64,000 nucleotides of DNA from Trueperaceae bacterium (GCA_965213705.1 OZ243913.1:3648001-3712000), one strand, 5' to 3'. Positions 5,425 through 20,986 are shown, counted from the stretch's first letter. Made by a program: numbers and translations. Notes: generated by a model not told the origin, from the letters alone.

Positions 5425-5703
5425 ATGTACGGTTCCGCTTCGAGCATCACGGCGACCCAGGAGCAAATTTCCACCGAACTAGACGGTGAAGTCGTCATCC
5501 TCAACACGAACACGGGCAAATACTTTACGCTGGACGGCGTCGGCACCGAGGTGTGGCAGCACCTACAAAACGCGGTCACAGTCTCAGACCTGTGCGCCAA
5601 GGTTGAGGCCCGTTACGACGTTGCGCCGGAACGCTGCCGGGCCGACGTGCTGGCGCTGTTGCAAGACCTCACCGAGGCAGGACTCGTCGAGCGTGTCGAC
5701 TAA
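5425..5703 (+). CDS. PqqD-family RiPP recognition element (lasso B1-like)
   Basis: ELDGEVVIL...KYFTLDGVGTEVWQHL...YDVAPERCRADVLALLQDLTEAGLV is a PqqD/RRE pattern. GGAGGG precedes ATG 5425; alternative start 5401. Confidence 0.9.
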   Translation: MYGSASSITATQEQISTELDGEVVILNTNTGKYFTLDGVGTEVWQHLQNAVTVSDLCAKVEARYDVAPERCRADVLALLQDLTEAGLVERVD

Positions 5704-6121
5704 GCTCGCCAAGATACCCGCCTTTTTCGCGAGGTCGGCTCTGGAGCGCCGGCTTTTGCTCGAGGCCCTGGCCACTCTCTGGCTCGTTCGGCTCGGGTTG
5801 TGGCTGCTGCCTTTCGGCGCGCTGCTGCGCCTCGTCCGGCGTCCGCTGGGAACGTCTAGCGTCGAAGTCGGCCGTTTGACAAAAACATTCACGGTTGTGA
5901 GCCGCTACGTGCCGCGTGCCACTTGCCTTGCCCAAGCCCTCGCCGGTCAACGTCTGTTGGCGGCTCACGGGCATTCCAGCCGCTTGCGAATAGGCGTTCG
6001 CAAAGACGGCGCGCGGTTGGGGGCGCACGCGTGGCTCGAGCATCAGGACCGCGTGGTTGTCGGACTCGTGTCCAACCTGACCGACTACCACCCCTTGTCC
6101 GGCGAGGGAGAACGACCATGA
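5693..6121 (+). CDS. Lasso B2-type transglutaminase-like leader peptidase
   Basis: TCLAQAL (catalytic Cys), LRIGVRK and AHAWLE (catalytic His). GTG 5693 overlaps the end of the RRE gene. Confidence 0.88.
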   Translation: MSTKLAKIPAFFARSALERRLLLEALATLWLVRLGLWLLPFGALLRLVRRPLGTSSVEVGRLTKTFTVVSRYVPRATCLAQALAGQRLLAAHGHSSRLRIGVRKDGARLGAHAWLEHQDRVVVGLVSNLTDYHPLSGEGERP

Positions 6122-6241
6122 CCTAAAGCCGCGTGAGCTTGCCCGCGCCACGACCGGGCGAGATGGGGAAGAACCGTGGTGGCCTGTTGCCGATAGTTTC
6201 GGCGCGTCCTGGGAAACTTCAAAAACTTTAGGGGAGAGTTT

Positions 6242-7402
6242 ATGAAACGAATTTTGTGGGGCAGCCTGTTAATTTTTATTCTTGCTGCTTGTGGCACGAG
6301 CAGCAATCCAGAAGTGCCGCAAGCGACGAACACCTTTAGTTTTACTGTGGACCCGGCAGCGCGAAGCGTCGAACTCGCTGCAGCACCGGCTGGTGCTCTT
6401 GCCGCTCGAGCCGAAGATGGCAGCCGTGTTTTAGTACCGCGTACGGACTTGAGTTTGAAGTCCTACACCTTTACTTTCTTGCCCGGCAACATACTCGCCA
6501 TCAACGCGAGCTTTAGAAACATTTCGGGTAAAACTTTCAAAAACTTGACGTTCAGCCGCGCTGCAAGCTCAGACAATATAGTCAGTTCGAGCGAGCCGGA
6601 CGTGGTCGAAACTTTGGAGTCTGGCGCGTCCACCAGCACTTTGCGCTTTATGGTGCAACACCAAGGTCAGCGCTTTGCTTACGAAGTAGACGCGAGTGCG
6701 ACGGTTGCAGCCCCAGAGCCTGGTGGAACCGAATGTACCAATCCGGTAAACATCCCCGACGACGTTCTTAGGCGGCAAATTCGGTCGGTGATTGGTAAAT
6801 CTCAAGGCGACATCACTTGCGCTGATATGGCGAGCCTGGAATCGTTGAGCATCGAGTCGCTTTACTCTTACGTTGGTGAGGTTTACAACCTGGAGGGATT
6901 GCAGTTTGCGGTGAACCTGACAGAGCTCCGAGTTAGTTTCACTGAACTTACCGACCTCCGCCCTTTAAGTGGTCTCACAAGCTTGCAGGGTTTGGATGTT
7001 GCTTCCAACAAAATTGATGATATCAGTCCACTACAGGGATTGACGAACCTGACGGGCCTGTCTGTGGCTAACAACAACATAAGCGACATCAGCGCAGTGA
7101 GCGACCTGCTCAGGTTGGAGCGCCTCATCTTGGCCTTCAACCCTATCACCGACATCGGCCCCTTGAGCGGTCTGGAAGACTTACAAATACTTCTCATTTG
7201 TAACAACCGGATCAGCGACCTCGGTCCCCTTATTGCCAACCCAGGTATCGGGAACGGCGACGACTTCATCGATTTGTCCGTGAACCCTTTTGACCTTTCT
7301 CCCGGTTCAAAAGCCTCACAAGACATCGAAACCCTAGAGCGTCGCAACCCGAACATTCCCAACATTTTCGGAACCGAAGCTCAGCCGGGCAGATGTAGCT
7401 AA
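6242..7402 (+). CDS. Internalin-like LRR lipoprotein 1
   Basis: Lipobox LAAC; shared N-terminal beta-rich domain; cap VNIPD..LR...GDITCADM; 22-aa LRRs (LxxLxxxxNxIxDIxPL). Confidence 0.88.
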   Translation: MKRILWGSLLIFILAACGTSSNPEVPQATNTFSFTVDPAARSVELAAAPAGALAARAEDGSRVLVPRTDLSLKSYTFTFLPGNILAINASFRNISGKTFKNLTFSRAASSDNIVSSSEPDVVETLESGASTSTLRFMVQHQGQRFAYEVDASATVAAPEPGGTECTNPVNIPDDVLRRQIRSVIGKSQGDITCADMASLESLSIESLYSYVGEVYNLEGLQFAVNLTELRVSFTELTDLRPLSGLTSLQGLDVASNKIDDISPLQGLTNLTGLSVANNNISDISAVSDLLRLERLILAFNPITDIGPLSGLEDLQILLICNNRISDLGPLIANPGIGNGDDFIDLSVNPFDLSPGSKASQDIETLERRNPNIPNIFGTEAQPGRCS

Positions 7403-7412
7403 GGAGCTTGAC

Positions 7413-7571
7413 ATGCATAAACCCGAGCCACAACCCAAGCCCACCGGCGGGCAACCCGTCAACGTGAACAAGCAGCCCTACGAGACACCGGTTTTTAAGG
7501 AACACGGCAGCGCCAAAAGTATCACTTTGCAAACCTTCTTCGGCACCTTCTCGCCGCCCGCCTCGGACTAA
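7413..7571 (+). CDS. RiPP precursor peptide 1 (52 aa)
   Basis: Not in the ORF track. AAGGAG at 7401-7406; MHKPEPQPKPTGGQPVNVNKQPYETPVFKEHGSAKSITL-QTFFGTFSPPASD. Confidence 0.9.
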   Translation: MHKPEPQPKPTGGQPVNVNKQPYETPVFKEHGSAKSITLQTFFGTFSPPASD

Positions 7572-7638
7572 ACGTTACTTTCCAGCACCCCTACGCAGGG
7601 ATACTTAAAACTCATCGAAAACTTCAGGAGAGAGTCTG

Positions 7639-10209
7639 ATGAAACGGATTTTGTGGGGCAGCTTAATAGTTTTACTCTTGGCAGCTTGCGGAACCAGTAA
7701 GCCAGACCTGCCGCAGGCTACAAATACTTTCAACTTCACCGTCAACCCGGCGGCGCAGAGCGTTGAACTCGCTTCGACACCTGCGGCTGGATTGACCGCT
7801 CAAGCCGAGGACGGTAGCCGCGTTCTCAAACCCGCCACAGAACTGAGCTTGGAGTCTTTCACATTTACTTTCTTGCCAGGTAATTTGCTCGCCATCGACG
7901 CGGTTTTCAAAAACGTCTCAGACCAAACGTTTACCAACCTGACGTTCAGTAGGGCGGCGGGCTCAGACGACATCGTCAGCTCGACTGAGCCGAACGTGGT
8001 CGCAACCTTGGCACCTGGCGCGTCCACCGGCACGCTGCGCTTTACGGTACAGCATAGAGGCCAACCTTTTACCTATGCGGTAGAGGCTAGGGCGACCGTG
8101 GGGATGACGGGAGGGGCTGGCTGTACCGACCCGGTGAACATTCCTGACCGTTTTTTGAAAGAAGGTACACGCATCCAGCTTCAACTTCAAGACAGCGAGA
8201 TTACCTGCGCGGACATGGAGAGGTTGACCGAACTCGACATCTATGAGTTAAGGGACGACATTGATGAAGAATTTCCCGAGCTGGTTGATGTCGGTACTCT
8301 TGAAGGGCTTCAGTTCGCGGTAAACCTCGAGTTCCTGGCGCTGCCTATTAACAGTAACAACAAAGACCTGCTCCAACCTTTGACGGGGCTCACAAGTCTC
8401 ACGAAACTTAGAATCGGCTTGTCCGGTGGGCGTCTTGACAACATCGACATTCCAGAGGAGTTTGAGAATTTTTACAATTTCAGCTACCTCGGCAGTTTGA
8501 TCAACTTGACTGACCTGAGACTATTCGCCTACCAAACGGATTACAGTTGGATAAGCAGTTTGACTAAGTTGACGACTCTCGACCTCAGCTTCAACGAACT
8601 CATAGAAGACTTGACTCCGTTCAGTACCCTGACCAACCTGACCGACTTCAACCTGTCTACCAACTCAGTCAGCGAGTTAGGTCCTTTGGTCTCAAATCCC
8701 GGCATCGGCGAAGGTGACGACCGGCTCGACTTAGACCAGAACTGTTTAGTTCTCACACCGGGGTCGGAAGACCTCGAGGCTGTCAATACCCTGGAGAGCC
8801 GCAACCCGGACGTTCAGAACGTTTTCTTAGGCACCCAAAAGAAGGACGCCTTTTGCGGCAGGACGCCCGACAGCGGCGCTGACCTGAGTCTGTTCGTCAA
8901 CGCTTTTAAACGTGGCGACGACGGCTTCGGCACTGTCGACACCGTGCAGGTCGGGGATGTTGTGGAATTCGTCGTAACCATTGATAACAACGGCCCCGAC
9001 ACGGCGTTCGACATCGTTGTCACAGCTGAGGTTGATAATGCCGCCGGACTCGAGTCATTTACATTTGAGGCCGTTGCTGACTCCAACTGCGACACCGTGC
9101 TAGACGGACCCGAAACCTACAAGCTGGTTTGCACTTTGACAGAAGCGTTGCCCGCTGGTGGTGAGGTTGGTCAAGTAGACCCTAGATTCTTCCTCGGTTT
9201 CGCAGCCGAGGCGGACAACGTCGGAACCATGACCGCGCGGTTTGAGGTATCTTCTAATACTACCAACGACTTCGATTCGTCCAACAACGATGATGTTAAA
9301 GAGATTAGTGTTTTGCCGGAGAACTCCGGCGATGAGTGTACCGACCCCGTGAATATTCCCGACGACACCTTGAGGCAATCCATTCGTGATGCGTTGAACA
9401 AGCCCGAAGGCGACATCACTTGCGCAGACATGGCGAGCTTGACCGAGTTGGTTTCACGCATCGAAAACGAGGTTGACCTCGAACAAATCGGCAACCTGGA
9501 AGGCATTCAGTTCGCAAAGAATCTCGAAACACTTGATTTTTTCGTCTCATGCTGCGAAGTAGTTCCCGACTTCTTCGAACCCCTGAGCGGTCTCGCCAAC
9601 CTGACTACCTTGAAAATTTTCAACATTCGGGACTTTCAGGAACTGGACTTTGACGACCTGGACTTCAGTCCTTTAGGTAGTCTCTCCAACCTTACCGTCC
9701 TCAGCCTTCCAGAAACCCAAGTAAGTAATATCGACTTTTTAAGTGGTTTGACCAACCTGTCCACCCTCGACCTTTCCGACAACGTCATAGACGACTACAG
9801 TCCCTTGAGCAACCTGACCGCCCTGAAAAAGCTGGACCTTTCGTCGGACAGGTTGTACTTAGAGTTTTTCGGAGTTGAGGACATCGGCTTTCTGAGTGGT
9901 CTTACCGCTTTGACCGACCTCGACCTCTCGAGTAACAACGTCAGTGACCTCAGTCCGTTGAGCGGCCTCACCCAGTTGGTCAATCTCGACCTTTCTTCCA
10001 ACCTCGTCACTGACATCAGCCCTTTGGTCATCAATGAGGGAATTGGCGACGGTGATGATGAACTTGTCTTAGTGAGCAACTGCTTGGATACGAGTTCGGG
10101 TTCTCAAGCGCTTGGTGACGCTGACACCCTAGAAAGCCGTAACCCAGATGTTCAGAATGTCTTCCTGGGAATGCAAGGAGATGATGAGGCTTGCAGCCAG
10201 GAAAACTAG
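7639..10209 (+). CDS. Internalin-like LRR lipoprotein 2 (two LRR modules flanking a DUF11-like domain)
   Basis: Lipobox LAAC; two capped LRR blocks; ADLSL...VTIDNNGPDTA...CTL...DSSNN DUF11-like domain between them. Confidence 0.88.
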   Translation: MKRILWGSLIVLLLAACGTSKPDLPQATNTFNFTVNPAAQSVELASTPAAGLTAQAEDGSRVLKPATELSLESFTFTFLPGNLLAIDAVFKNVSDQTFTNLTFSRAAGSDDIVSSTEPNVVATLAPGASTGTLRFTVQHRGQPFTYAVEARATVGMTGGAGCTDPVNIPDRFLKEGTRIQLQLQDSEITCADMERLTELDIYELRDDIDEEFPELVDVGTLEGLQFAVNLEFLALPINSNNKDLLQPLTGLTSLTKLRIGLSGGRLDNIDIPEEFENFYNFSYLGSLINLTDLRLFAYQTDYSWISSLTKLTTLDLSFNELIEDLTPFSTLTNLTDFNLSTNSVSELGPLVSNPGIGEGDDRLDLDQNCLVLTPGSEDLEAVNTLESRNPDVQNVFLGTQKKDAFCGRTPDSGADLSLFVNAFKRGDDGFGTVDTVQVGDVVEFVVTIDNNGPDTAFDIVVTAEVDNAAGLESFTFEAVADSNCDTVLDGPETYKLVCTLTEALPAGGEVGQVDPRFFLGFAAEADNVGTMTARFEVSSNTTNDFDSSNNDDVKEISVLPENSGDECTDPVNIPDDTLRQSIRDALNKPEGDITCADMASLTELVSRIENEVDLEQIGNLEGIQFAKNLETLDFFVSCCEVVPDFFEPLSGLANLTTLKIFNIRDFQELDFDDLDFSPLGSLSNLTVLSLPETQVSNIDFLSGLTNLSTLDLSDNVIDDYSPLSNLTALKKLDLSSDRLYLEFFGVEDIGFLSGLTALTDLDLSSNNVSDLSPLSGLTQLVNLDLSSNLVTDISPLVINEGIGDGDDELVLVSNCLDTSSGSQALGDADTLESRNPDVQNVFLGMQGDDEACSQEN

Positions 10210-10284
10210 CTGACACAAGCGTTTCTTGACGCGAGGTTTAGTCAGACAGTAGAACATCAGTCGTAAGTAGTGTAAGGAGTAAGT

Positions 10285-10446
10285 GTGAGCAAATACCTAA
10301 AGTCCCAACCCTTGTTACAAAACGTTGCTGAAAACGAAAAAGGCAAGAAAGTTTACCAAACCCCCATTCTCAAAGAACACGGTAGCGCCAAGGACATCAC
10401 CCTGCAAACCTTCTTCGGCACCTTCTCGCCGCCCGCTTCCGACTAA
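10285..10446 (+). CDS. RiPP precursor peptide 2 (53 aa)
   Basis: Not in the ORF track. AAGGAG then GTG 10285; MSKYLKSQPLLQNVAENEKGKKVYQTPILKEHGSAKDITL-QTFFGTFSPPASD. Confidence 0.88.
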   Translation: MSKYLKSQPLLQNVAENEKGKKVYQTPILKEHGSAKDITLQTFFGTFSPPASD

Positions 10447-10454
10447 TCTCCTCG

Positions 10455-10484
10455 GTCCGGTGGCCCCACGCGGGGCTACCGGAC
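10455..10484 (+). promoter_or_regulatory. GC-rich stem-loop after precursor 2
   Basis: GTCCGGTGGCCCC-ACGC-GGGGCTACCGGAC, 13-bp stem with one G-U pair, no U-tract. Confidence 0.7.
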
Positions 10485-10552
10485 TCATCAGCGTCGTTAC
10501 CACTCGAGCGCCCTGTTGCTTTACAGTAAGCACAAGACATGAAGGAGGAACT

Positions 10553-12640
10553 GTGAAACGACGATTATGGGGAAGCTTTTTGGTGTTGCTTCTGGCCGCT
10601 TGCAGCTCGAGCCCGGTAGACCTGCCGCAGGCCGGCAATACTTTCAGCTTTGCGGTTGACCCGGCGGCGCAAAGTGTCGACCTCGTCTCGACGCCTGCTG
10701 CGCTGAGTAACCAAGCCGAAGACGGTAGCCGCGTCCTCGTACCGGGTGAAGACTTGAGCCTGGAATCTTACACATTCGTATTTTTACCCGGCAACGTGCT
10801 CACCATCGACGCGGTTTTCAAAAACGTTTCAGACCAAACTTTTACCAACCTGAGGTTCAGCCGCGGGGCGGGCTCGAGCAACGTTGTCAACTCGACCGAG
10901 CCGGACGTGGTCGCAACCCTGGCACCCGGCGCGTCCACCGGTACGCTGCGTTTTGAAGTGCAGCACAGGGGCCAAAGTTTCAGCTACGAGGTCGAAGCTA
11001 CCGCGACCGTGGAGACGGGCGGGGCCGACTGCGCCGACCCGGTAACGATTCCGGACGAGGTTCTGAGGCAAGCCGTCCGGGACGCTCTGAACAAACCCGA
11101 AGGTGACATCACCTGCGCCGACATGGCGAGTTTGTCCGAATTGAGCGTGATAGGTCGCCAGGGCGAGAACGGAATTCCTAACAGGTTCGTCGAAAACTTA
11201 GAGGGTTTGCAGTACGCCGTGAACCTGATGACGCTGCAGCTTATGGGCAACCTTACCCTCAACGACGTCACTCTGCTGAGCACGCTTACCGAACTGACCG
11301 ACCTGGACCTGAGCGGCAACCGCATCGGTGATATCGGTCCGTTGAGCACGCTGGTCAACCTCACGAGGCTCGACCTCGGTTTCAACCTGGATATCGAGGA
11401 CGTCAGCCCGCTGAGCGGACTGACCGGGCTCGAGACCTTGGTCCTCAACATCAACCAGATTACCGACCTGGCCCCGCTGAGCACGCTTACAAACTTGCGC
11501 AGGCTCGACCTCGGCACCAACTTTGTTGCCGACCTTGGTCCTTTAGCAACCAACACAGGCGTCGGAAACGACGACGACCGCATCGACCTGAGGTTCAACT
11601 GTTTGGACGTCTCACCGGGTTCGCAAACGCTCGAGAACGTCGCCGCACTGGAAAGCCGCAACCCGGATGTCCAGAACGTTTTCTTGGGAACGCAAAGAGA
11701 GAGTGACGAGGACTGCGGTCGGCTGCCGCCACCGCCTCCCGCCGAAGAGTGTAGCGACCCGGTGAACATTCCCGACGACACTCTGCGAAAAGAACTGCGT
11801 TTGCAACTTCAACTCCTTGAAGACAGCGAAATCACCTGCTCGGACCTGCTACGTCTAACCGAGTTCAGCTATCAAGATATAGACGTCTTCATCACTAATT
11901 TGGAGGGGTTGCAGTACGCCGTCAACCTGATATCGCTCGAGATTGTCGACGGTTTTCTTACAGACATCAGTCAAGTGAGCGGCCTCACCAAGTTAACAAG
12001 ACTGGATTTGAGCCGCAACGAACAAATTAGGGACACCACACCGCTGAGTGGTTTGGTGAACCTCAGATACCTTGACTTAGCGAGCAATGCCATTGAAGAC
12101 GTCAGTTCACTAAACGGTTTGACCAACCTCGAAATCCTCTACCTGTCCAATAACCCTATCAAGCACATAAGGCCACTTAGCGGTCTGACTAATCTCAGGG
12201 AACTTTACCTAAACGGCGTTGCTGCGCTCGAGGACTACAGCGCTCTACAAGCCCTACCCAACTTGCAAGTTCTCAACCTGTCAAACCGGTTTCTTTTTGA
12301 AGATTTGAAAATAGTCGACATCAGCTCTTTGAAAGGGCTTACCAGCCTGACCCAACTGAATTTGTCCGACAATAAAATCTCCGATATCGGTTCGCTAAGC
12401 AACCTGACAAACTTGAGTAGGCTTGATTTATCGGAAAACTTCGTACGTGACCTTAGCCCCCTTGTGGCAAATACAGGTCTTGGGAACGGCGAAGACAGCA
12501 TCGAGTTGGGGAACAACTGTCTGGACACTTCCCCCAAATCACAGGCTTCACAAGATGTTGCAATTATCGAAGCGAGAAACCCATCAGTTGACAATGTTTT
12601 CGGCTTCGATGTTCCGAAGCTACCGTCACAGTGCAATTAA
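10553..12640 (+). CDS. Internalin-like LRR lipoprotein 3 (two LRR modules)
   Basis: GAAGGAGG then GTG 10553 gives MKRRLWGSFLVLLLAAC, paralogous to LRR1/2. The ORF-track extension from 10325 overlaps precursor 2. Confidence 0.88.
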   Translation: MKRRLWGSFLVLLLAACSSSPVDLPQAGNTFSFAVDPAAQSVDLVSTPAALSNQAEDGSRVLVPGEDLSLESYTFVFLPGNVLTIDAVFKNVSDQTFTNLRFSRGAGSSNVVNSTEPDVVATLAPGASTGTLRFEVQHRGQSFSYEVEATATVETGGADCADPVTIPDEVLRQAVRDALNKPEGDITCADMASLSELSVIGRQGENGIPNRFVENLEGLQYAVNLMTLQLMGNLTLNDVTLLSTLTELTDLDLSGNRIGDIGPLSTLVNLTRLDLGFNLDIEDVSPLSGLTGLETLVLNINQITDLAPLSTLTNLRRLDLGTNFVADLGPLATNTGVGNDDDRIDLRFNCLDVSPGSQTLENVAALESRNPDVQNVFLGTQRESDEDCGRLPPPPPAEECSDPVNIPDDTLRKELRLQLQLLEDSEITCSDLLRLTEFSYQDIDVFITNLEGLQYAVNLISLEIVDGFLTDISQVSGLTKLTRLDLSRNEQIRDTTPLSGLVNLRYLDLASNAIEDVSSLNGLTNLEILYLSNNPIKHIRPLSGLTNLRELYLNGVAALEDYSALQALPNLQVLNLSNRFLFEDLKIVDISSLKGLTSLTQLNLSDNKISDIGSLSNLTNLSRLDLSENFVRDLSPLVANTGLGNGEDSIELGNNCLDTSPKSQASQDVAIIEARNPSVDNVFGFDVPKLPSQCN

Positions 12641-12650
12641 GGAGATGCGT

Positions 12651-12809
12651 ATGAAAAAACCTGATTTGTTTTTCAAGTCCGCCGACGAACAACTTACCGA
12701 AGTGGATAAGCAACCTTATGTGACGCCGGTTCTCAAAGAACACGGCCACGCCAAAGACGTCACCCTGCAAACCTTTTTCGGTACTTTTTCGCCGCCTGCT
12801 TCGGACTGA
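12651..12809 (+). CDS. RiPP precursor peptide 3 (52 aa)
   Basis: AAGGAG at 12639-12644; MKKPDLFFKSADEQLTEVDKQPYVTPVLKEHGHAKDVTL-QTFFGTFSPPASD (C-terminal part of track ORF 12423..12809). Confidence 0.9.
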   Translation: MKKPDLFFKSADEQLTEVDKQPYVTPVLKEHGHAKDVTLQTFFGTFSPPASD

Positions 12810-12817
12810 CCGCCCTG

Positions 12818-12847
12818 TTCCGGTGGCCCCACGCGGGGCCACCGGAA
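12818..12847 (+). promoter_or_regulatory. GC-rich stem-loop after precursor 3
   Basis: TTCCGGTGGCCCC-ACGC-GGGGCCACCGGAA, perfect 13-bp stem, nearly identical to 10455-10484. Confidence 0.7.
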
Positions 12848-12929
12848 AGTGTGAAATATCTTAAATACGGTATTGGGCGAGCAGCGTGTTATTTTACGGT
12901 TTTGTGAGGGGGCGATGAGGGAGGATGTC

Positions 12930-14444
12930 GTGAAGCGACTTTTTTGGGGTGGATGGCTCGTTCTTTTGCTGGCGGCTTGTGGTGGGCGCGGCCCCGAGGC
13001 GAAGGTGACGGGCGTGTTTGTTTTGAGCGTGGACCCAGGTACACAGACCGGCGAAGTTTCGGTGGTGGGGACGGGTGCGGCCGAGCGGGACGGCGCTCGC
13101 GCGCTCGTTCCCGGCGAGGACTTAGCAGTCGCGGGCTCAGAGTTCGTTTTTCTGCCCGACAACGTCGTCAGCTTGGAGCTGGCTTTCAAAAATGTCTCGT
13201 CTTGCACCTTTAGGAACTTGGCGTTCAGCCGAGGCGCGGACTCCCGAGCCGTGGTGAGTTCGGTCGAGCCCGCCGTTACGAGTGCCGATTTAGGCGGGGG
13301 CGCGCTCGAGCCCGCCGAAACCACGCGCACGTTAACTTTCGGCGTCACTCACACGGGCAAGCCGTTTGTCTACGCCCTCGCGGCCGAGGCCGACGTGACG
13401 TGCGCCCAAGCGGCGAGCGCCGACCTGCAGACCAACCTGGACGCCCGCTCCGGGAGTACCGTCGCCAAGGGCAAGCCTTTTACCTACTACGCCAACGTCA
13501 GGAACAACGGACCCGACGAGGCTGCGGGCGTCGCGCTCACGGTGACGGTGCCGTTTCCGGTCAGCGTGCCGGACGGCTGCAGCCAGAGCGGGAGCACGCT
13601 GACCTGTGACCTGGGCAAAGTCGGGGCGGACGGGAGCAAGGGCGTGCTCGTCACCGGGACGGCCGCCGAAGCGGGTTCGTACAAGGTGTCCGCCACAGTT
13701 TCCGCAGGCACGCCCGACCCGGACTCGCGCAACAACAGCGTGACAAAAACTTTCGAAGTCTCCGTGCCCACCCAAACCTGCACCGGTCCTGTGCAGATTC
13801 CCGACGCGGCCTTGGAGGCCGCCGTCCGCGCCAAGCTGAAGATTCCGAGCGCCGGCTTGACTTGTACGGACATGGCGAAGTTGACAACCCTCAGGGCCGA
13901 CGCCGACGTTGAGAGCGAAGATGACCCGGACCTTATCAGCAACCTGCAAGGGTTGCAGTTCGCAACCAACCTGACCACCCTAAGCTTAAACGACAACAGC
14001 GTCAGCGACTTGGGTCCGCTGAAGGGCCTTACGAAATTGACGGAGCTTAACTTGATTACCAACCGCATCAGCGACCTGGGTCCGTTGAGCGGCCTGACCG
14101 GCCTGAAACGCCTCACTCTCAACTTCAACGAGGTTACAAACCTGACGCCGCTCAAAGGGCTGACGTCTTTGACAGACCTGCAACTCGCCGTCAACCGAAT
14201 AAGCGACGTGACGGCGTTGAGCGGTTTGACAAACCTCAACATTCTGGACCTTTACTTCAACACCGTCACGAACATCAACCCCCTGGTCGCCAACAGCGGT
14301 GTCGGGAACGCGGACGACTTCGTCGACCTGAGCAACAACTGTCTGGACGCGGCCGGTGTCAACGCCGCACGCAGCCTCGAGGCCAGAAGCCCAAACAACG
14401 TCGTGAAGTTCGGCAGACAGGGGGGCGAGCAGTGCACGCCGTGA
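12930..14444 (+). CDS. Lipoprotein 4 with DUF11-like and internalin-like LRR domains
   Basis: GTG 12930 after GGAGGA; MKRLFWGGWLVLLLAAC; ADLQ...VRNNGPDEA...DPDSRNNS; LRR block. Confidence 0.85.
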   Translation: MKRLFWGGWLVLLLAACGGRGPEAKVTGVFVLSVDPGTQTGEVSVVGTGAAERDGARALVPGEDLAVAGSEFVFLPDNVVSLELAFKNVSSCTFRNLAFSRGADSRAVVSSVEPAVTSADLGGGALEPAETTRTLTFGVTHTGKPFVYALAAEADVTCAQAASADLQTNLDARSGSTVAKGKPFTYYANVRNNGPDEAAGVALTVTVPFPVSVPDGCSQSGSTLTCDLGKVGADGSKGVLVTGTAAEAGSYKVSATVSAGTPDPDSRNNSVTKTFEVSVPTQTCTGPVQIPDAALEAAVRAKLKIPSAGLTCTDMAKLTTLRADADVESEDDPDLISNLQGLQFATNLTTLSLNDNSVSDLGPLKGLTKLTELNLITNRISDLGPLSGLTGLKRLTLNFNEVTNLTPLKGLTSLTDLQLAVNRISDVTALSGLTNLNILDLYFNTVTNINPLVANSGVGNADDFVDLSNNCLDAAGVNAARSLEARSPNNVVKFGRQGGEQCTP

Positions 14445-14571
14445 GGGACGCCCCGCCGAGCCGCGCCCCGTCGAGCGCCCGCTCGAGACGTGACGCCCAC
14501 CCTCGCCCCCACACGATTTTGCTACCTATTGCCGCCCGTGCCAAACAGGTAGAGGACTCCAGGACACCGTT

Positions 14572-15594
14572 ATGAAAAAACTGAGTTGTTTAGTTCTCGT
14601 CGTTTTGTTGCTCAGCGCCTGCAGCGCACCCAACTCGCAGCCTACCGAACCGCCGCCGACTGAGCCTGTCGACCAGCCGCAGCCCGTCGCCGACCTGCAA
14701 GTCAACTTCGACGAGCGCTCGGCAGACCCCGTCGCCCAAAACGGTACTTTCGAATACTACGTCAGTGTCAGGAACAACGGCAGCGCCGACGCAGAAGGCG
14801 TGCAGCTTACGGTCACAGTGCCCTTTCCGGTCACCGAAGTCCCGCCAGAATGCGGCTCGAGCGACAGCACGTTAGAGTGTGACCTTGGCAACCTCGACGT
14901 GGGCTTTACCGAAGGGGTTCTCGTTTCAGGCCAAGCCGTTGAAGAAGGAATTTTTCTGGTATCAGCAAATGTTTCTGCCGCCACGAATGACCCTGACCTG
15001 AGTAATAACAGCACCACTGAAAGTTTCGAGGTTTTTCTGCCGACATCGCCTTCGGACTTGCAAGGCCGAATTGCGAATTGGTCTGTAGGTGAAGCTGAGC
15101 TGAGCACGGTGCTTTACGATCAAGCGGAAAAGTCTACTAAAGTCGCTTCGGGGACTGTAGGCGCGGACGGAAAGCTCGACATCTTTTTGGGCAAAAGTGT
15201 ACCGGCCGATGTCCTGTCAAGAATTTCCGCCTGTTCGGGGTTGATGCAGACGAACCCGGGCACGCGCCAAAACACCTTCTCGGCTCTTCAGGTCATGCGG
15301 GGTCAGACAGAGGTAGGCCGGGTGGCCCTCGCCTCGAGCCAAGCGGTTCTAACTGAAGGTCTGCGTAAGGTAGGCGACTACTACGTCCAGCAAACCTACG
15401 CGGACGCCGCCAACACGGTGACGGGGAGCTGCGCGCTCGGCGGGGTGGTCGACGCGGTTTTCAAGTATGACCTCAAACTCAACCAGGGTTGGAACACCGT
15501 CACCTTTAAACTCACCAGAAAAGACGGTGACGCCCAAACCCTCGAGCTGTCGTCGGGTACCCCACAAGGGGCCGCCTGGTTTTTCGCGCCCTAA
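14572..15594 (+). CDS. Lipoprotein 5 with DUF11-like domain, no LRR
   Basis: Lipobox LSAC; ADLQV...VRNNGSADA...DPDLSNNS closely resembles the DUF11-like domain of lipoprotein 4; C-terminal LKLNQGWN beta-rich domain. Confidence 0.8.
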   Translation: MKKLSCLVLVVLLLSACSAPNSQPTEPPPTEPVDQPQPVADLQVNFDERSADPVAQNGTFEYYVSVRNNGSADAEGVQLTVTVPFPVTEVPPECGSSDSTLECDLGNLDVGFTEGVLVSGQAVEEGIFLVSANVSAATNDPDLSNNSTTESFEVFLPTSPSDLQGRIANWSVGEAELSTVLYDQAEKSTKVASGTVGADGKLDIFLGKSVPADVLSRISACSGLMQTNPGTRQNTFSALQVMRGQTEVGRVALASSQAVLTEGLRKVGDYYVQQTYADAANTVTGSCALGGVVDAVFKYDLKLNQGWNTVTFKLTRKDGDAQTLELSSGTPQGAAWFFAP

Positions 15595-15611
15595 ACGAGG
15601 CCGACGAACAC

Positions 15612-16622
15612 ATGCCCGCCGCCCCCAAGACTGCCGCCCCCAAAACTGCCGGCTTGGTCATGGTGGGACACGTTGCCGTGGGGCTCGAGGGTGACGCTAC
15701 CCACCTCGGCGCCTTGTTGGAGGCGTTGGGGCGGCTGTTCGTGCTGGGTTCGGAGCCTACCGCAAAAGGCGTCACTATTCGGCTGAGCGAGTCGGGGTGG
15801 GCGCTCGGGCCGGGTAAAGAGGTCTACAAAGCCGCTGGCTTGCAGGTTGTCGAGACGGCGTCGGGCTTTTATTTGCGCTGCGGCGCGTCGGTGTTCGAAG
15901 TGTCTCCCGGCGTGACGGGGCGGTTGTACCTCGGGCCGGACTTTTGGGAGCACACCTCGTACGAGCGGCGCGAGTTCTTTTTGCTCGGGCTACTCATGCT
16001 GCTGCGCCCGCTGGGGCTGTACGGTTTGCACGCCTGCGGGCTACGCAAACCTGACGTGTGCGGTGACGCGGGCGGTGACGTGGGCGCGCTGTTGGTGGGC
16101 GGCAGCGGCGCGGGCAAAACGACCACCACCTTGAACCTCATCCGGCACGGTTGGGACTACCTGTCCGACGACGCGGTGTTGCTGCGTGAAGCGGGCGAAA
16201 GAGTGGAAGCCGTAGCCTTTCGCAAAGGGTTTTCTTGCACGCCGAAGACACTTCTCGCTTTTCCCGGTTTGCGCGGCGTGGAAGAGTTCGGTGACCCTTC
16301 GGGCAAGCGGGTCGTGGACTTAGGGGCAACGTTTGGGGGCGGTTTCGTACCGCGTTGCACGCCGCGGTTGCTGCTGTTTCCCCGGCTACACGCGGGACGC
16401 ACGGAGCTTCGGCCGCTACCGAACGCGCTGGCCCTCGTCCGGCTCAGCCAGCAGAGTGGCGGCATCATGACGGCCGCTAGGGGGGACAACGTGGTGTCGC
16501 GCGGCCAGCTCGAGCTGCTCAAACGCCTCGTGCGTCAGGCGCAGAGTTTCGAACTTTTACTGGGCGAGGACGCGCTGCACGATTTGTCTTTGGTGAGTAA
16601 GTTATTGGAGGATTCATTCTAG
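15612..16622 (+). CDS. HPr kinase-related P-loop kinase (RiPP kinase-like)
   Basis: LHAC, Walker A GGSGAGKTT and LSDD: the His / P-loop / Asp-Asp signature of HprK-like kinases. Confidence 0.82.
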   Translation: MPAAPKTAAPKTAGLVMVGHVAVGLEGDATHLGALLEALGRLFVLGSEPTAKGVTIRLSESGWALGPGKEVYKAAGLQVVETASGFYLRCGASVFEVSPGVTGRLYLGPDFWEHTSYERREFFLLGLLMLLRPLGLYGLHACGLRKPDVCGDAGGDVGALLVGGSGAGKTTTTLNLIRHGWDYLSDDAVLLREAGERVEAVAFRKGFSCTPKTLLAFPGLRGVEEFGDPSGKRVVDLGATFGGGFVPRCTPRLLLFPRLHAGRTELRPLPNALALVRLSQQSGGIMTAARGDNVVSRGQLELLKRLVRQAQSFELLLGEDALHDLSLVSKLLEDSF

Positions 16623-17641
16623 TGCGCGTCGTCGTCGAACTCACCAACCGCTGCAACTTGGCGTGCCAGCACTGTTTTTCGGGACGGCACGGCGGCAACG
16701 ACGACCTACCCCTGGCGGTCCTAAACAACATCTTGGCGGGCGCGGCCTCGGTGGGCCTCACCCACCTCACCTTTACCGGCGGCGACCCGACGCTGTACAA
16801 ACACTTCGACACCTTACTGGACCGCGTGACGCAGGAAGGTTACCGCTACAGTTTGGTTACGAACGGCTTTAACTTCGCGCAGGTTTATCCGAAGGTTTTG
16901 AAGTACCGGGGCGGTCTCGAGCAAGTCACCTTCAGCTTAGACGGCGCGACCGACGCCACGCACGCCCGGTTGCGCGGGAGTAAGTCATTTGCTCGAGTCC
17001 TGGCGGCGATGGCGCTGTGCCGCGAGCACGAGGTTCCTTTTACCAACAACATGGTCGTCACCAAGCACAACGCGCACGAACTCGCCGCGGCCGCCGAGCT
17101 TGTGCTGGCGCAAGGCAGCGCGGGCCTGCGCTTTGGGCACCTAATGCACTCGCCACTGACGACGGCCCAGGACTTCGACCTGAGCTTAGACGAGCGCCGC
17201 GGGGTCGAGCGCGAAATCTGGGCGCTGCAAAAACGCTACGCCGCGCGGCTGCCCGTTGCGATGGCTCCCGGCTTCACCACCGCCGACCCGCTGCCCTGCG
17301 CGCCGCTGCACCTGCAAGAGGTCAACGTGGACTACCGCGGCTACCTGACCAAGTGCTGCCATCTTTCGAGCCACGGCGCGGGCGTGGGCACGGACGACGT
17401 GGTGTGCAACCTCGCCGAGACCGACTTTCGTGAGGGCTTTCTCAAGCTGTTTTTGCAAAACGAAGGATTCAAACGCGCTAAGGCCGCGCGGCTTCAGGCC
17501 AGCCCGAGCGAGAGCGATACAAGTCCCTGCTGGTACTGCGCCAACCACTTCAAAAAGGTCGACTGGCTGCGGAACTTTGAGGGGCATCCGTGGCTCGAGC
17601 ACCTGTGGGACGCCGCACCCGCCGAGGACGTGCTCGCGTGA
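16622..17641 (+). CDS. Radical SAM enzyme with Cys-rich SPASM/twitch-like C-terminus
   Basis: CNLACQHC, TGGDP, SLDG...H..LRG; C-terminal PC...VDYRGYLTKCC...CNL...CWYC. Start overlaps the kinase stop (TAGTG). Confidence 0.9.
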   Translation: MRVVVELTNRCNLACQHCFSGRHGGNDDLPLAVLNNILAGAASVGLTHLTFTGGDPTLYKHFDTLLDRVTQEGYRYSLVTNGFNFAQVYPKVLKYRGGLEQVTFSLDGATDATHARLRGSKSFARVLAAMALCREHEVPFTNNMVVTKHNAHELAAAAELVLAQGSAGLRFGHLMHSPLTTAQDFDLSLDERRGVEREIWALQKRYAARLPVAMAPGFTTADPLPCAPLHLQEVNVDYRGYLTKCCHLSSHGAGVGTDDVVCNLAETDFREGFLKLFLQNEGFKRAKAARLQASPSESDTSPCWYCANHFKKVDWLRNFEGHPWLEHLWDAAPAEDVLA

Positions 17642-18792
17642 CCGTTCCCTCCTCCGCACCAGCAGGATTTCGGCTGCTCGTCGCCTGCTCGAGGGCGCAC
17701 CTGGAACCCGGTAACGCGGCGACGCTCGACGAACTTCTCGGGCTACCCCTGGACTGGGACGAAGTGCTCGCCGAAGCGCGCCGGCACGGCGTCACGCCGC
17801 TGTTGCACCGCCACCTGTCGGGCCGGGCTGAGGTCCCCGCCGCCCCGCTCGCCGAACTCAGCACCTACGCCCGCCGCAACGCCGTTCACAACCTCCTGCT
17901 GTCAAAAGAACTGCTCCGGGTGCTGGGGGAACTTGAGGGTGCGGGTGTGCGCGCCGTGCCCTACAAAGGCCCGACGCTCGCCGTCGCCGCCTACGGCGAC
18001 GTGGCGCTGCGCTCGTTTCAGGACCTCGACGTCATCGTGCGCCCGAACGAGTTCGAACCCGCTCTGGACGCGCTGCAAACGTCTAGCTACGCCCTCGTCG
18101 AGAGTGCCGAGGGCCGGTTTCACGCGACGCTCAAACACGAGGAAACGGGCGTGCTGGTCGAACTCCACCGCGACGTGGTGCGGCGTGAGCGTTTTCCGAC
18201 CGGGCTCGAGCTTACCGCTATGTGGGAAAGGCTCACGGAGGTCGGTCTGCTTGGTCAAAGAGTGCCGAGCTTCGCACCCGAAGACACGCTTTTGCTCCTG
18301 TGCCTCCACGGAGCCAAACACGAGTGGCAAGGGCTCACCTGGCTGTGCGACCTCGCCGAATACCTGCGCGCTCACCCAAGCCTGGACTGGGACCGAGTGC
18401 TGCAGCAAGCCGAGCGGGCACGCGTGACGCGGGTGCTGCTCCTCGGGCTGGCGCTGGCGGAGCATGTTTTGGCCCCGCCGCTGCCCGAAACGGTGCAGTG
18501 TTTGGTAAAGAGTGACCGCAGTTTGCCCGGTTTGCAGGCGACTATCATCGTGAGGTTCTACGAAGACGCAAACCTGCTCGAGCGGGGCGCCCTACCCTAC
18601 CGCCTGCGCGCCGGGATGCGCTCGAGGTTGGAGGACAAGCTGCCCGTTTACAGAAGTTTTGCAGCCCGGCTGCTGCGCCCGAACGAGCAGGACAAACGGG
18701 CCGTCAAGTTGCCGAAACGGCTCGAGCCTTTGTACTACCTCGTCCGGCCGCTGCGCCTGCTAAAGGACGGCGTGGCTCAAAAACGACGCTGA
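17638..18792 (+). CDS. Nucleotidyltransferase-family protein (NTP_transf_5-like)
   Basis: LDWDEVL..ARRHGV, YKGPTLA, RSFQDLDVIV, VELH, HGAKH, WLCD. GTGA overlap with the rSAM stop. Confidence 0.85.
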   Translation: MTVPSSAPAGFRLLVACSRAHLEPGNAATLDELLGLPLDWDEVLAEARRHGVTPLLHRHLSGRAEVPAAPLAELSTYARRNAVHNLLLSKELLRVLGELEGAGVRAVPYKGPTLAVAAYGDVALRSFQDLDVIVRPNEFEPALDALQTSSYALVESAEGRFHATLKHEETGVLVELHRDVVRRERFPTGLELTAMWERLTEVGLLGQRVPSFAPEDTLLLLCLHGAKHEWQGLTWLCDLAEYLRAHPSLDWDRVLQQAERARVTRVLLLGLALAEHVLAPPLPETVQCLVKSDRSLPGLQATIIVRFYEDANLLERGALPYRLRAGMRSRLEDKLPVYRSFAARLLRPNEQDKRAVKLPKRLEPLYYLVRPLRLLKDGVAQKRR

Positions 18793-18816: not shown

Positions 18817-20217
18817 TCACTGGTTTGCGCTGACCCGCTCGAGCTTGAGTTCCCGCCTGAGACCCCGCTCGCTCGTACCGAGCGTGCCGTCTTCGATAAA
18901 ACCCGTATAGACTTCGTCGTTGCGGTTGGGTAGCAACGCGTCGATAACCCAAGTGGAGGCTTGGCCGTCTTCAGCCGTCGTTTTAGCCCGGAAGCTGACG
19001 GGGGCGTAGTAGTCGGCGGGTGCCAAATACTTTTGCTCACTACCTCCTTGGACTTCACCTTGTAGGTCGCGAACGGTGCCGGAAGCGTCCGTAACTGTTC
19101 CGCTTACGCCATAGTGCCACTCGTCCAAAAAGGTTGCCTCGAGGTCCAGATAAAGCGTTTCAGGCGCAGGGTCGGGAAGGGTTTGCAAAAGTTGTCCCGT
19201 TTCCAACTCGAACATTTGAACAACGCCGTCGGTGGTGGCCGCGACGACGTAGCGCTCGTCACGACTCAAAACCGGCGGCGTGTACAGCGCGAAAGGTGCC
19301 GAAGGCGCGCGCACTCCGGCGCGGCGTTCGCCCGTGGCGATGTCCAAAAGCTCGAGTTGGGTCGTGTTGGTATCGTAGGGCGGAGCAAACAAAGACGCGG
19401 TTAGTACGGCGGTGCCGTCGCCGCTGAACCCCAGCAGGTAGCTTGCCTCAAATTCGGCTGGTGTATCTAAGTAGGCACCACTGGCGAAATCCCACCTATC
19501 GATGAGGCGTCCGAGCCATTGCACCCACAGTTGCCGCCCGTCCGGCGTAAACAGGGTGCGGTAGAGTGACGAGCCGTTGTATTTGACACTCGTGAATTGG
19601 CGGACGAGCTGCCCCGTTTTGAGGTCCCAGACGAAATAAGTGCTGGTGCTGCCCCCTACCAGCAAGTAGCTGCCGTCGGGGCTGAAAATCAACTCACCAA
19701 CGGCAACGGGGTGCTCGAGCGTATAAAGCAAATCTCCAGTTTTCGCGCTCCACACTTTGACGGTATTTTCATCTCTGTAATACAGAGCGGTTGCAAAGAG
19801 GTCGAAGTTGGGTGAAAGAACGCTCGTGGCACTCAGTCCGTCCTGCTCGACCACATCAAAGTCCAGCAGGGTTTTCCCGGTAGCCAAGTCCACAATTTGA
19901 ACCGCGGGGCCGCTGACCCCCAACCGCGTGCCGTCGGCGCTGAACGAAACTTGACCCGGCCCGAGGTCGATTTTTGTACTCGTGAAAGTCTGCGTGTCGT
20001 AAAGGTCGAACCCGTAAGAGGTCGCCGCTGCAAAGCTCGAGCCGTCCGGGTTGAAGGCCAAGCCGGACACGCTCTCGCCCGTGACTTTGCCGACCTTGGC
20101 CTGCCAGGTGCCGCGCAAGACGCTCGGGTCGCTGGCAAAGTCGACCGATTTGCGCGTGTCTAAGCAGCCGCTGAGCAGCAACGCGAGTGAAACGAGCAAC
20201 AGGTTTCGACGTAACAC
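18817..20217 (-). CDS. WD40-like beta-propeller lipoprotein
   Basis: Lipobox LSGC; repeated FSPDG/FNPDG and VWDLKTG motifs. Confidence 0.8.
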   Translation of the reverse strand: MLRRNLLLVSLALLLSGCLDTRKSVDFASDPSVLRGTWQAKVGKVTGESVSGLAFNPDGSSFAAATSYGFDLYDTQTFTSTKIDLGPGQVSFSADGTRLGVSGPAVQIVDLATGKTLLDFDVVEQDGLSATSVLSPNFDLFATALYYRDENTVKVWSAKTGDLLYTLEHPVAVGELIFSPDGSYLLVGGSTSTYFVWDLKTGQLVRQFTSVKYNGSSLYRTLFTPDGRQLWVQWLGRLIDRWDFASGAYLDTPAEFEASYLLGFSGDGTAVLTASLFAPPYDTNTTQLELLDIATGERRAGVRAPSAPFALYTPPVLSRDERYVVAATTDGVVQMFELETGQLLQTLPDPAPETLYLDLEATFLDEWHYGVSGTVTDASGTVRDLQGEVQGGSEQKYLAPADYYAPVSFRAKTTAEDGQASTWVIDALLPNRNDEVYTGFIEDGTLGTSERGLRRELKLERVSANQ

Positions 20218-20330: not shown

Positions 20331-20843
20331 TTAGCGAAAATTCTCGAGAATAGCTTTGACCGACGGCGAGGTGCTTTGCGGACTCAGTGAAGCTGTCGTC
20401 AACTCGCTGTCGTAGGCAAGATTCAGCGTGAGGCTGCTGCTCTGACCGTCTATAACGAAGATGAGTTTGCCCGTTAGGGTTTTGGCGTCAGTGCCGAAGG
20501 TACCCTCAACCTTGATTTGGTCGCCGACGTCGTCCGTTATGCTGAGAGTCAGCGTCGTACCTTCGACTGAACCCTCCAGGGTGCAACACGTAACCGGGTT
20601 ATCGTACTGGTCTATGTAACCGAAGGTACCGGACACCGCGGTACCCGTTTGGGTGAAGCCGAAACCCACGTACATACCGCTGCCCGAATCCGGGCTGGTG
20701 GCGGTGCCAAACCAAAAATCGTTGTCGAGGTTGATGACGCTGGGGACGGGTTTCGGGGCTGGAGCGGCCGGGCTCGGGCCGGTGGACGAGCACGCCGCCA
20801 ATCCGAAGACGAGGAGGAGCAACACGACGTTTCTTACTTTCAT
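20331..20843 (-). CDS. Hypothetical lipoprotein
   Basis: MKVRNVVLLLLVFGLAAC lipobox; AAGGAG upstream of ATG 20843. Confidence 0.7.
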   Translation of the reverse strand: MKVRNVVLLLLVFGLAACSSTGPSPAAPAPKPVPSVINLDNDFWFGTATSPDSGSGMYVGFGFTQTGTAVSGTFGYIDQYDNPVTCCTLEGSVEGTTLTLSITDDVGDQIKVEGTFGTDAKTLTGKLIFVIDGQSSSLTLNLAYDSELTTASLSPQSTSPSVKAILENFR

Positions 20844-20986
20844 ACGAACTCCTTTGGGCATAGTGACCTGCAGGTCTCAACCAGTGTAGGTGACGCGTCC
20901 TTACAAAATCCTTACCCTCGAGCGGCGTGGACAACGCAAAGCGCGGCACGTTTCCAACTCGTCGGGGTGGGTAAAATAAGGGTGTT

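Follow-up and report, generated by a model that had tools for sequence, protein, structure and literature searches.

A 64,000-nucleotide (nt) stretch of a Trueperaceae bacterium genome (GCA_965213705.1 OZ243913.1:3648001-3712000; hereafter referred to as the window) carries, at positions 5425–18792, an operon that resembles the biosynthetic cassettes for ribosomally synthesized, post-translationally modified peptides (RiPPs). This operon combines the RiPP recognition element (RRE) and the B2 leader peptidase of lasso-peptide pathways with an HprK-like kinase, a radical S-adenosylmethionine (rSAM) enzyme and a nucleotidyltransferase (NTase), together with three precursor genes and five lipoprotein genes. 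Here we report that related cassettes occur in several phyla, where they are coupled to an unannotated immunoglobulin (Ig)-like domain of probably exported proteins, and we weigh the proposal that the peptide is a dedicated partner or tag of this domain.

Gene content of the Trueperaceae operon

The operon consists of 13 genes in one orientation, all with ribosome-binding sites. As an initial annotation of the window had described, some of these co-oriented genes overlap, by 11 nt (RRE/B2), 1 nt (kinase/rSAM) and 4 nt (rSAM/NTP_transf_5). Its features are as follows.

5425–5703, plus strand: stand-alone RRE of the lasso B1/PqqD type, 92 amino acids (aa); PF05402, E 5.5e-22; best NCBIfam model NF033536, 72 bits, under its cut-off of 80
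5693–6121, plus strand: lasso-type B2 leader peptidase, 142 aa; PF13471; NF033537, 82 bits against a cut-off of 33
6242–7402, plus strand: lipoprotein 1, with lipobox, shared Ig-like domain (about 6326–6715) and leucine-rich repeats (LRRs)
7413–7571, plus strand: precursor 1, 52 aa, core QTFFGTFSPPASD
7639–10209, plus strand: lipoprotein 2, with shared domain (about 7720–8109), then LRR, DUF11 and LRR
10285–10446, plus strand: precursor 2, 53 aa, GTG start, core as in precursor 1
10456–10483, no strand: GC-rich hairpin with a 12-bp stem, directly 3′ of precursor 2; −25.4 kcal/mol
10553–12640, plus strand: lipoprotein 3, with shared domain (about 10634–11020) and two LRR blocks
12651–12809, plus strand: precursor 3, 52 aa, core as in precursor 1
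12819–12846, no strand: second copy of the hairpin, after precursor 3
12915–14444, plus strand: lipoprotein 4, with shared domain (about 13008–13406), DUF11 and LRR; no precursor follows it
14572–15594, plus strand: lipoprotein 5, with DUF11 and an unannotated C-terminal domain, without LRRs or the shared domain
15612–16622, plus strand: HprK-like kinase; PF07475 under cut-off; His-Lys-Asp-Asp set (LHA, GKT, SDD)
16622–17641, plus strand: rSAM enzyme with CxxxCxxC and a Twitch-type cysteine set
17638–18792, plus strand: NTP_transf_5 nucleotidyltransferase of the PsmN/LppN type; PF14907, E 6e-61

The B2 protein has its catalytic cysteine in a TCL motif and its histidine and glutamate in HAWLE, and the genome encodes B2 and the RRE once each. 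All three precursors share the identical end TLQTFFGTFSPPASD, and their last 14 codons differ pairwise by 3, 7 and 6 nt, all synonymous. The leaders follow the pattern YxxPxF/L..G.....T-L with a lasso-type threonine at position −2; precursor 3 scores 18.9 bits against the lasso leader model NF033521 (cut-off 19), which matches 55 of 65 precursors at E 0.1 or better. Together with the RRE (PF05402) and B2 (NF033537) matches, the Thr(−2) leader supports the earlier suggestion that lasso-type leader recognition and cleavage is joined here to rSAM chemistry. The lipoprotein labels first given, LRR for lipoproteins 1–3 and DUF11 for 4 and 5, are correct and incomplete: lipoprotein 4 also carries LRRs, and lipoprotein 2 also carries DUF11. 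A genome of the same genus (G001) has two lipoprotein–precursor units against three in the window, which points to tandem amplification of the unit.

A cross-phylum cassette and its Ig-like domain

Among the candidates scored, 267 rSAM homologues matched at E 1e-30 or better, and family loci were taken from genomes (57) and metagenomes (80). The cassette ranges over Trueperaceae, Chloroflexota, anammox and other Planctomycetes, Nitrospira, Acidobacteria, deltaproteobacteria and others. In the 39 family loci that span 15 kb or more, we found the kinase in 38, the RRE in 37, the precursor in 33, the Ig-like domain in 31, the NTase in 30 and B2 in 29, as well as a secretin-N0-like exported protein in 10 and a GNAT protein in 7; the 13 control loci of unrelated rSAMs (drawn from L070–L092, with L087 left out) contained the domain, the precursor and B2 in no case. 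The usual order is cargo, N0-like protein, B2, precursor, kinase, rSAM, RRE and NTase. Extra candidates for tailoring enzymes are a sulfotransferase in one cassette and a methyltransferase in another (L027:11348-12304; L057:11296-12669). In two near-complete genomes (G004 and G073, 96–98%; L228–L232), the system looks scattered: a kinase–rSAM–RRE group, two RRE–B2 pairs and a second kinase with an NTase lie far from one another, and precursors occur solely behind domain genes.

The family core motif is FFGxF[S/T]P. In the logo of 79 distinct precursors, the counts are F77 F75 G73 x F78 S/T72 P74; nine leader-pattern matches without the motif (about six variant cores, one apparent frameshift and two non-family sequences) were left out of this set. 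With 7 unparsed cores set aside, the motif holds a serine or threonine in 96 of 97 parsed cores, at +5 in 83 of them; the 14 exceptions include ten with Ser/Thr at +3 and three with Ser at +2. Such a near-constant Ser/Thr fits a required kinase site. The gap between the cleavage site and FF varies across the family from 0 to 8 residues.

Lipoproteins 1–4 of the window have at their N terminus an unannotated domain of ~110–120 aa, which AlphaFold models as an Ig-like sandwich (pLDDT 95). This domain is homologous to one found in other phyla (hhalign 97%, E 3e-11, against at most 1.8% for column shuffles) and is not DUF11, as hhalign of three window DUF11 copies gave 5% and 4% and PF01345 matched none of 42 members. 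Elsewhere, the domain is mostly C-terminal on unrelated exported proteins, its carriers in other phyla including SpaA/GEVED, vWA–PKD, CBM9, β-helix, NHL/BNR propeller, papain-like, C-type lectin and Ig-repeat proteins, and the protein ends within 15 residues of the domain in 105 of the best 150 profile matches. By a simple hydropathy rule, 87 of 103 full-length domain proteins have a hydrophobic N terminus, compared with 15 of 287 enzymes. At 50% identity, 1,784 clusters match the profile, and a genome may encode up to 21 domain proteins. The initial annotation had linked the product to a family of surface LRR proteins, a link that our data do not support: the LRR consensus is present in just 12 of the 103 full-length domain proteins of the fetched loci, and a further LRR gene of the same genome, near 4.05 Mb, lacks both the domain and a precursor. 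LRRs were thus ruled out as the linked feature, and it is the unannotated Ig-like domain that travels with the precursor. A Foldseek search with the domain returned no match at E 0.001 or better; its best VIA match (Z 7.3) lies among generic Ig folds, rows for FimG and CBM2 were taken as generic Ig likeness, and NCBIfam models on 28 members gave three rows, at chance level.

Two further motifs accompany the domain. The strand-like FxFx[FVIL][DNE]P stands ahead of it in 26 of 28 proteins of the window type and forms the end of 27 of 37 secretin-N0/STN-like exported cassette proteins (background 4 of 3315 frames); sites include window positions 6326–6360, 7720–7755 and 10634–10670 and, for example, L049:1708-2229, and comparable strings occur behind the domain in certain other proteins. 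This motif could act as an additional signal, provided in cis or in trans. Chloroflexota domain proteins (L237, L027) frequently have a [VI][YF]LP..(R/K) tail, which we take to be a C-terminal sorting-like motif of that phylum, and one genome (G821) has four tandem domain genes with such tails and no RiPP cassette.

The rSAM and the domain co-occur. Across 783 genomes (four chosen centres left out), both were present in 21, the domain only in 4, the rSAM only in none and neither in 758; kin are not independent in these counts, which lowers their weight in favour of a functional tie, and a single domain model was used per group. By group, both were present in 9 of 128 Trueperaceae genomes (domain only in 2), in 12 of 107 genomes of the anammox class of G152 (A3 model), in 2 of 251 genomes of the class of G153, and in 1 of 301 genomes of the class of G154 (domain only in 1). 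The class of G152 also includes G171, with a window-type domain beside the cassette, and G174, where the domain and precursor genes sit at the end of a contig. In three genomes, 15–21 scattered domain proteins accompany one rSAM cassette. The precursor is tied to the domain gene by position: of the 10 precursor copies in four Trueperaceae genomes, 9 lie directly 3′ of a domain gene, several of them far from the enzyme genes, and the remaining one is 2.6 kb past a domain gene with a broken frame; in five anammox genomes, 6 of 8 precursors directly follow a domain gene and all 8 are within about 3 kb of one.

In addition, 19 distinct anammox-type domain proteins end in FFG/CRFxP, 29–49 aa after the domain (background 0 of 1088 long frames). 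These fused tails carry the bare peptide motif, usually without Ser/Thr. In an AlphaFold model of the domain with its fused tail, the tail is undocked, with pLDDT about 66 and no strand, the tail being present in just 9 of 42 rows. A complex prediction for the window domain (A6) with precursor residues 13–42 (A4), run without controls, scored 0.25 against a mark of 0.32 and was used neither way.

Enzyme chemistry and relation to known peptide classes

The lasso-type leader, RRE, B2, kinase and NTase would all be present if the product were an ordinary phosphorylated lasso peptide with its cyclase encoded elsewhere. This explanation is already largely refuted, and we find it scarcely credible. 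A whole-genome PF00733 search of the 98%-complete, single-contig genome found no lasso cyclase, in agreement with the cyclase-free assignment made initially; its sole match, over 76 of 354 positions, has the sequence of GMP synthase. Full-length PF00733 proteins are absent from G000, G001, G150 and G004 (G004 has a partial match only), and those in G073 and G121 are distant from the cassette. A motif screen for the cyclase ATP loop gave no match among 143 neighbouring open reading frames of 430–800 aa. With cleavage after Thr(−2)-Leu(−1), the window core has its sole Asp at position 13 and no acid at positions 7–9; Asp or Glu occupies these positions in 5 of 79 family cores, and many family cores are just 7–9 residues long.

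The paeninodin and pseudomycoidin lasso systems (PadeK, PsmK, PsmN; PMC9266682, cited, as are the other papers below, for the accessible parts of its text) share with the present cassette the split RRE/B2, a YxxPxL...T(−2) leader, an HprK-like kinase with the His-Lys-Asp-Asp set and an NTP_transf_5 enzyme, whereas here the cyclase, ring acid and ABC exporter are absent, an rSAM is added and a secreted-protein domain is coupled. Furthermore, the Ser/Thr is internal in the core here and C-terminal in paeninodin and pseudomycoidin (PMC9266682). Linear polyphosphorylated peptides (LPPs; Popov et al. 2026, PMC13381572) are similarly cyclase-less, with a discrete RRE together with an HprK-like kinase, an NTP transferase and a YxxP leader; as described in that text, they have a SipW-like signal peptidase, an MsbA-like exporter, no rSAM in the core set and long variable cores, and reside in Bacillota capsule loci. 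By contrast, the operon studied here has B2, an rSAM, a short invariant core and no transporter, and the SpI/SipW and MsbA pair of LPP loci was not found. In its workings, the system resembles a relative of LPPs and phosphorylated lasso peptides that has no cyclase, and it belongs to neither class. The roles of paeninodins and LPPs, including the final LPP product, are stated as unknown in the available text of PMC13381572.

SynChlorMet, HPr-rel-A/B and GeoRSP are uncharacterised systems that also have PqqD-like, HprK-like and rSAM genes. Compared by NCBIfam models only, they scored far under cut-off (ScmE 86/400, ScmD 40/100, HprK_rel_B 29/200, HprK_rel_A 23/200, GeoRSP 72/400), the sole borderline system model being TIGR04353, which the RRE just reaches (35.3 against 35); the present cassette differs from them in its precursor, in having B2 and in a Twitch rather than full SPASM domain. 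Daptides were also considered and dropped, their peptidase being a site-2 protease. We found no published description of the cassette or domain in a search outside which lay subscription papers (rSAM–RiPP atlases) and supplements, which may list the precursor. The accessible text of PMC7470986, PMC10885120, PMC12710340, PMC11117315 and PMC10028931 does not describe the cassette; PMC7470986 reports that about 300 lasso-like RREs adjoin rSAMs. The architecture, initially called undescribed, falls in no described class that we found, and the cassette itself is widespread across phyla. The enzymes themselves are of known kinds; for the cross-phylum coupling of a RiPP to an exported-protein domain, we found no counterpart.

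The C-terminal domain of the rSAM has a Twitch-type cysteine arrangement, C226-X18-C245-C246-X56-C303-X2-C306, in which the CC pair is kept in 99 of 103 rSAM sequences. The SPASM Pfam model is weakly matched by 31 of 40 members, with the second-cluster cysteines missing. Four of the five conserved cysteines would serve one cluster, which would leave one spare. In EpeE, Cys223 is the second cysteine of a CC pair. This Twitch-domain cysteine acts as the hydrogen-atom donor in epimerisation (PMC13012085), and the spare conserved cysteine here thus makes epimerisation the first guess for the rSAM, which might, we tentatively suggest, convert a residue of FFGxF into a D-residue. A Phe-centred cross-link is the second guess, and we consider it about equally likely. 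The window core and the motif logo contain no cysteine, so the thioethers of sactipeptides and ranthipeptides would have no partner. EpeE/YydG (PMC13012085, PMC5682303, PMC8326336) has a Twitch-type domain with one auxiliary cluster, an extra cysteine and a hydrophobic peptide substrate, features that the present system may share; in the available text of these papers, it has no RRE, B2, kinase or NTase partners.

The His-Lys-Asp-Asp motifs are present in all 10 family kinases checked, and this set is the one reported for lasso-peptide kinases (PMC9266682). PDB sequence searches gave a weak HprK match for the kinase (E 0.008) and no match for the NTase or the rSAM C-terminal profile. We infer the probable roles of the kinase and NTase from the paeninodin, pseudomycoidin and LPP systems (PMC9266682, PMC13381572), in the first group of which PsmN adds hexoses (PMC9266682).

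Possible role of the peptide

We put at about even the chance that the product of the enzymes is a linear peptide, phosphorylated and rSAM-modified, which is likely a dedicated partner, or docking or sorting tag, of the Ig-like domain. The RRE would bind the YxxPxL leader, the HprK-like kinase would phosphorylate the motif Ser/Thr (most likely Ser8), as PadeK and LppK do, and the NTP_transf_5 enzyme would put a sugar or nucleotide on that phosphate, by analogy with PsmN. The rSAM would abstract hydrogen in the FFGxF segment, and B2 would cut after T-L, freeing a 13-mer. The mature peptide would meet the domain at the cell envelope and so position, anchor or route the cargo. In the window, each of the three tandem-duplicated lipoprotein genes is paired with its own peptide gene, and in anammox bacteria an FFGRFxP version that cannot be modified is fused behind the domain. 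We lean slightly against the fuller version, in which the RiPP is a trans-acting address tag: one RRE/B2/kinase/rSAM/NTase cassette would supply an FFGxF[S/T]P peptide that docks on the domain of up to ~20 exported proteins per genome, the anammox tag would be hard-wired, and the secretin-N0-like protein could provide a link to outer-membrane transport. Single loci that serve many exported cargos sharing a small terminal domain include S-layer homology domains with pyruvylated polymer, choline-binding repeats with LicD, cohesin–dockerin, PEP-CTERM and the C-terminal domain of the type IX secretion system. To our knowledge, none of these recognises a ribosomal modified peptide as its tag.

Several results weigh against the partner or tag proposal. 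The operon encodes no exporter, which leaves the passage of a cytoplasmic peptide to lipoprotein domains unaccounted for. The domain was detected in 42 of 57 family genomes and not in 15; with the A3 model, it was missing genome-wide in 15 of 20 genomes picked for a domain-less rSAM locus, a sample of which completeness is not given and in which several loci lie on short contigs. Conversely, G071 (97% complete) and G821 have domain proteins without the rSAM or precursor. The stoichiometry is uneven, about 1:1 in the window and one precursor to 15–21 cargo genes in G157 and G212. The stretch upstream of the motif in the fused tails scores −1.9 bits against the leader profile, no higher than shuffles (maximum −1.0), and the 19 tails may all go back to a single event within one lineage. 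As for the chemistry, likeness of the rSAM to EpeE is confined to the RS core (E 1.6e-10), that core is nearer to SkfB, BlsE and PqqE than to EpeE, and the rSAM C-terminal profile gave no match to the EpeE C-terminal domain.

Were the peptide a free diffusible signal or antimicrobial, with the domain as its receptor, sink or immunity module, the two would be expected to co-occur as seen, and hydrophobic epimerised RiPPs such as the epipeptide act on membranes (accessible text of PMC8326336). We consider this unlikely, as the core hardly varies across phyla, in contrast to signals or toxins involved in conflict, the carriers of the domain are proteases, lectins, β-helices, propellers and LRR proteins rather than regulators, and the operon lacks an exporter and a regulator; the dispersed enzyme sets of the two near-complete genomes (96–98%) are also more like housekeeping genes. 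Covalent joining of the peptide to the cargo domain as a post-translational tag, by transpeptidation or through an activated phospho-Ser/Thr, is a good deal less probable. It would suit the pairing of one precursor gene per cargo gene in Trueperaceae, the resemblance of the fused tails to a permanent tag, and a B2 of transglutaminase-like fold that frees an amine used by no cyclase, but the spacer of 0 to 8 residues between cleavage site and FF, the GNAT protein in 7 of 39 loci (probably amine-blocking) and the lack of signal peptides on the enzymes, while the cargo is exported, all argue the other way.

Marginally less probable again is a carbohydrate-binding-like domain that binds the glycan of a phospho-glycopeptide decorating a surface polysaccharide, and not the peptide. 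The domain has no conserved tryptophan (at most 7% per column), the 90 neighbours scanned contain no polysaccharide genes and the fused tails are bare motifs, usually without Ser/Thr; on the other side are a weak CBM2 likeness (Atlas 0.84, short of the lead bar; VIA Z 6.5; PF00553 in 1 of 42 members at E 0.0015), the placement of LPP and paeninodin clusters in capsule loci (available text of PMC13381572) and hexose addition by PsmN (PMC9266682). That domain genes merely hitch-hike on the same mobile island, with no functional tie to the peptide, we regard as very improbable: precursor–domain pairs are kept at sites distant from the enzyme genes, 19 proteins carry the motif as an in-frame fusion, and the association recurs across phyla with unrelated cargo. 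A GC dip to 52–57% over the lipoprotein array (window 6001–14000), against about 62% in the flanks, and a patchy distribution, with the domain alone in four genomes and no domain detected in 15 that carry the rSAM, would nevertheless suit such an island.

The RiPPs described to date are chiefly antibiotics, signals, cofactors and metallophores, and a structural tag for exported proteins would, if true, be a new role and a testable answer to the purpose of kinase/NTP_transf_5 peptide clusters. The coupling supplies a setting for an unannotated family of domains often found in anammox, nitrifying and soil bacteria, and the motif offers a 7-residue substrate for new rSAM chemistry. Should the tag idea fail, the cassette would still define an uncharacterised RiPP family.

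The operon is flanked by a 2-oxoacid dehydrogenase-like operon and by a WD40 lipoprotein gene in the opposite orientation. Two lipoprotein-like genes on the minus strand, both without the shared domain, converge on the operon end (18817–20217, the WD40 propeller; 20331–20861, unannotated). A promoter scan of the operon was at chance level (3 against 2.2), and no terminator was found at the operon end. The 28-nt hairpin after precursors 2 and 3, a possible mRNA-stabilising element, has no other genomic site even with 6 mismatches allowed. The C-terminal half of lipoprotein 5 belongs to an unannotated lipoprotein family of ~180 aa, encoded directly upstream of the kinase in Trueperaceae cassettes (L014:8419-9036, L015:6040-6651, L017:8408-9016, L095:8371-8979), and two weak relatives of it lie at other sites of the same genome.

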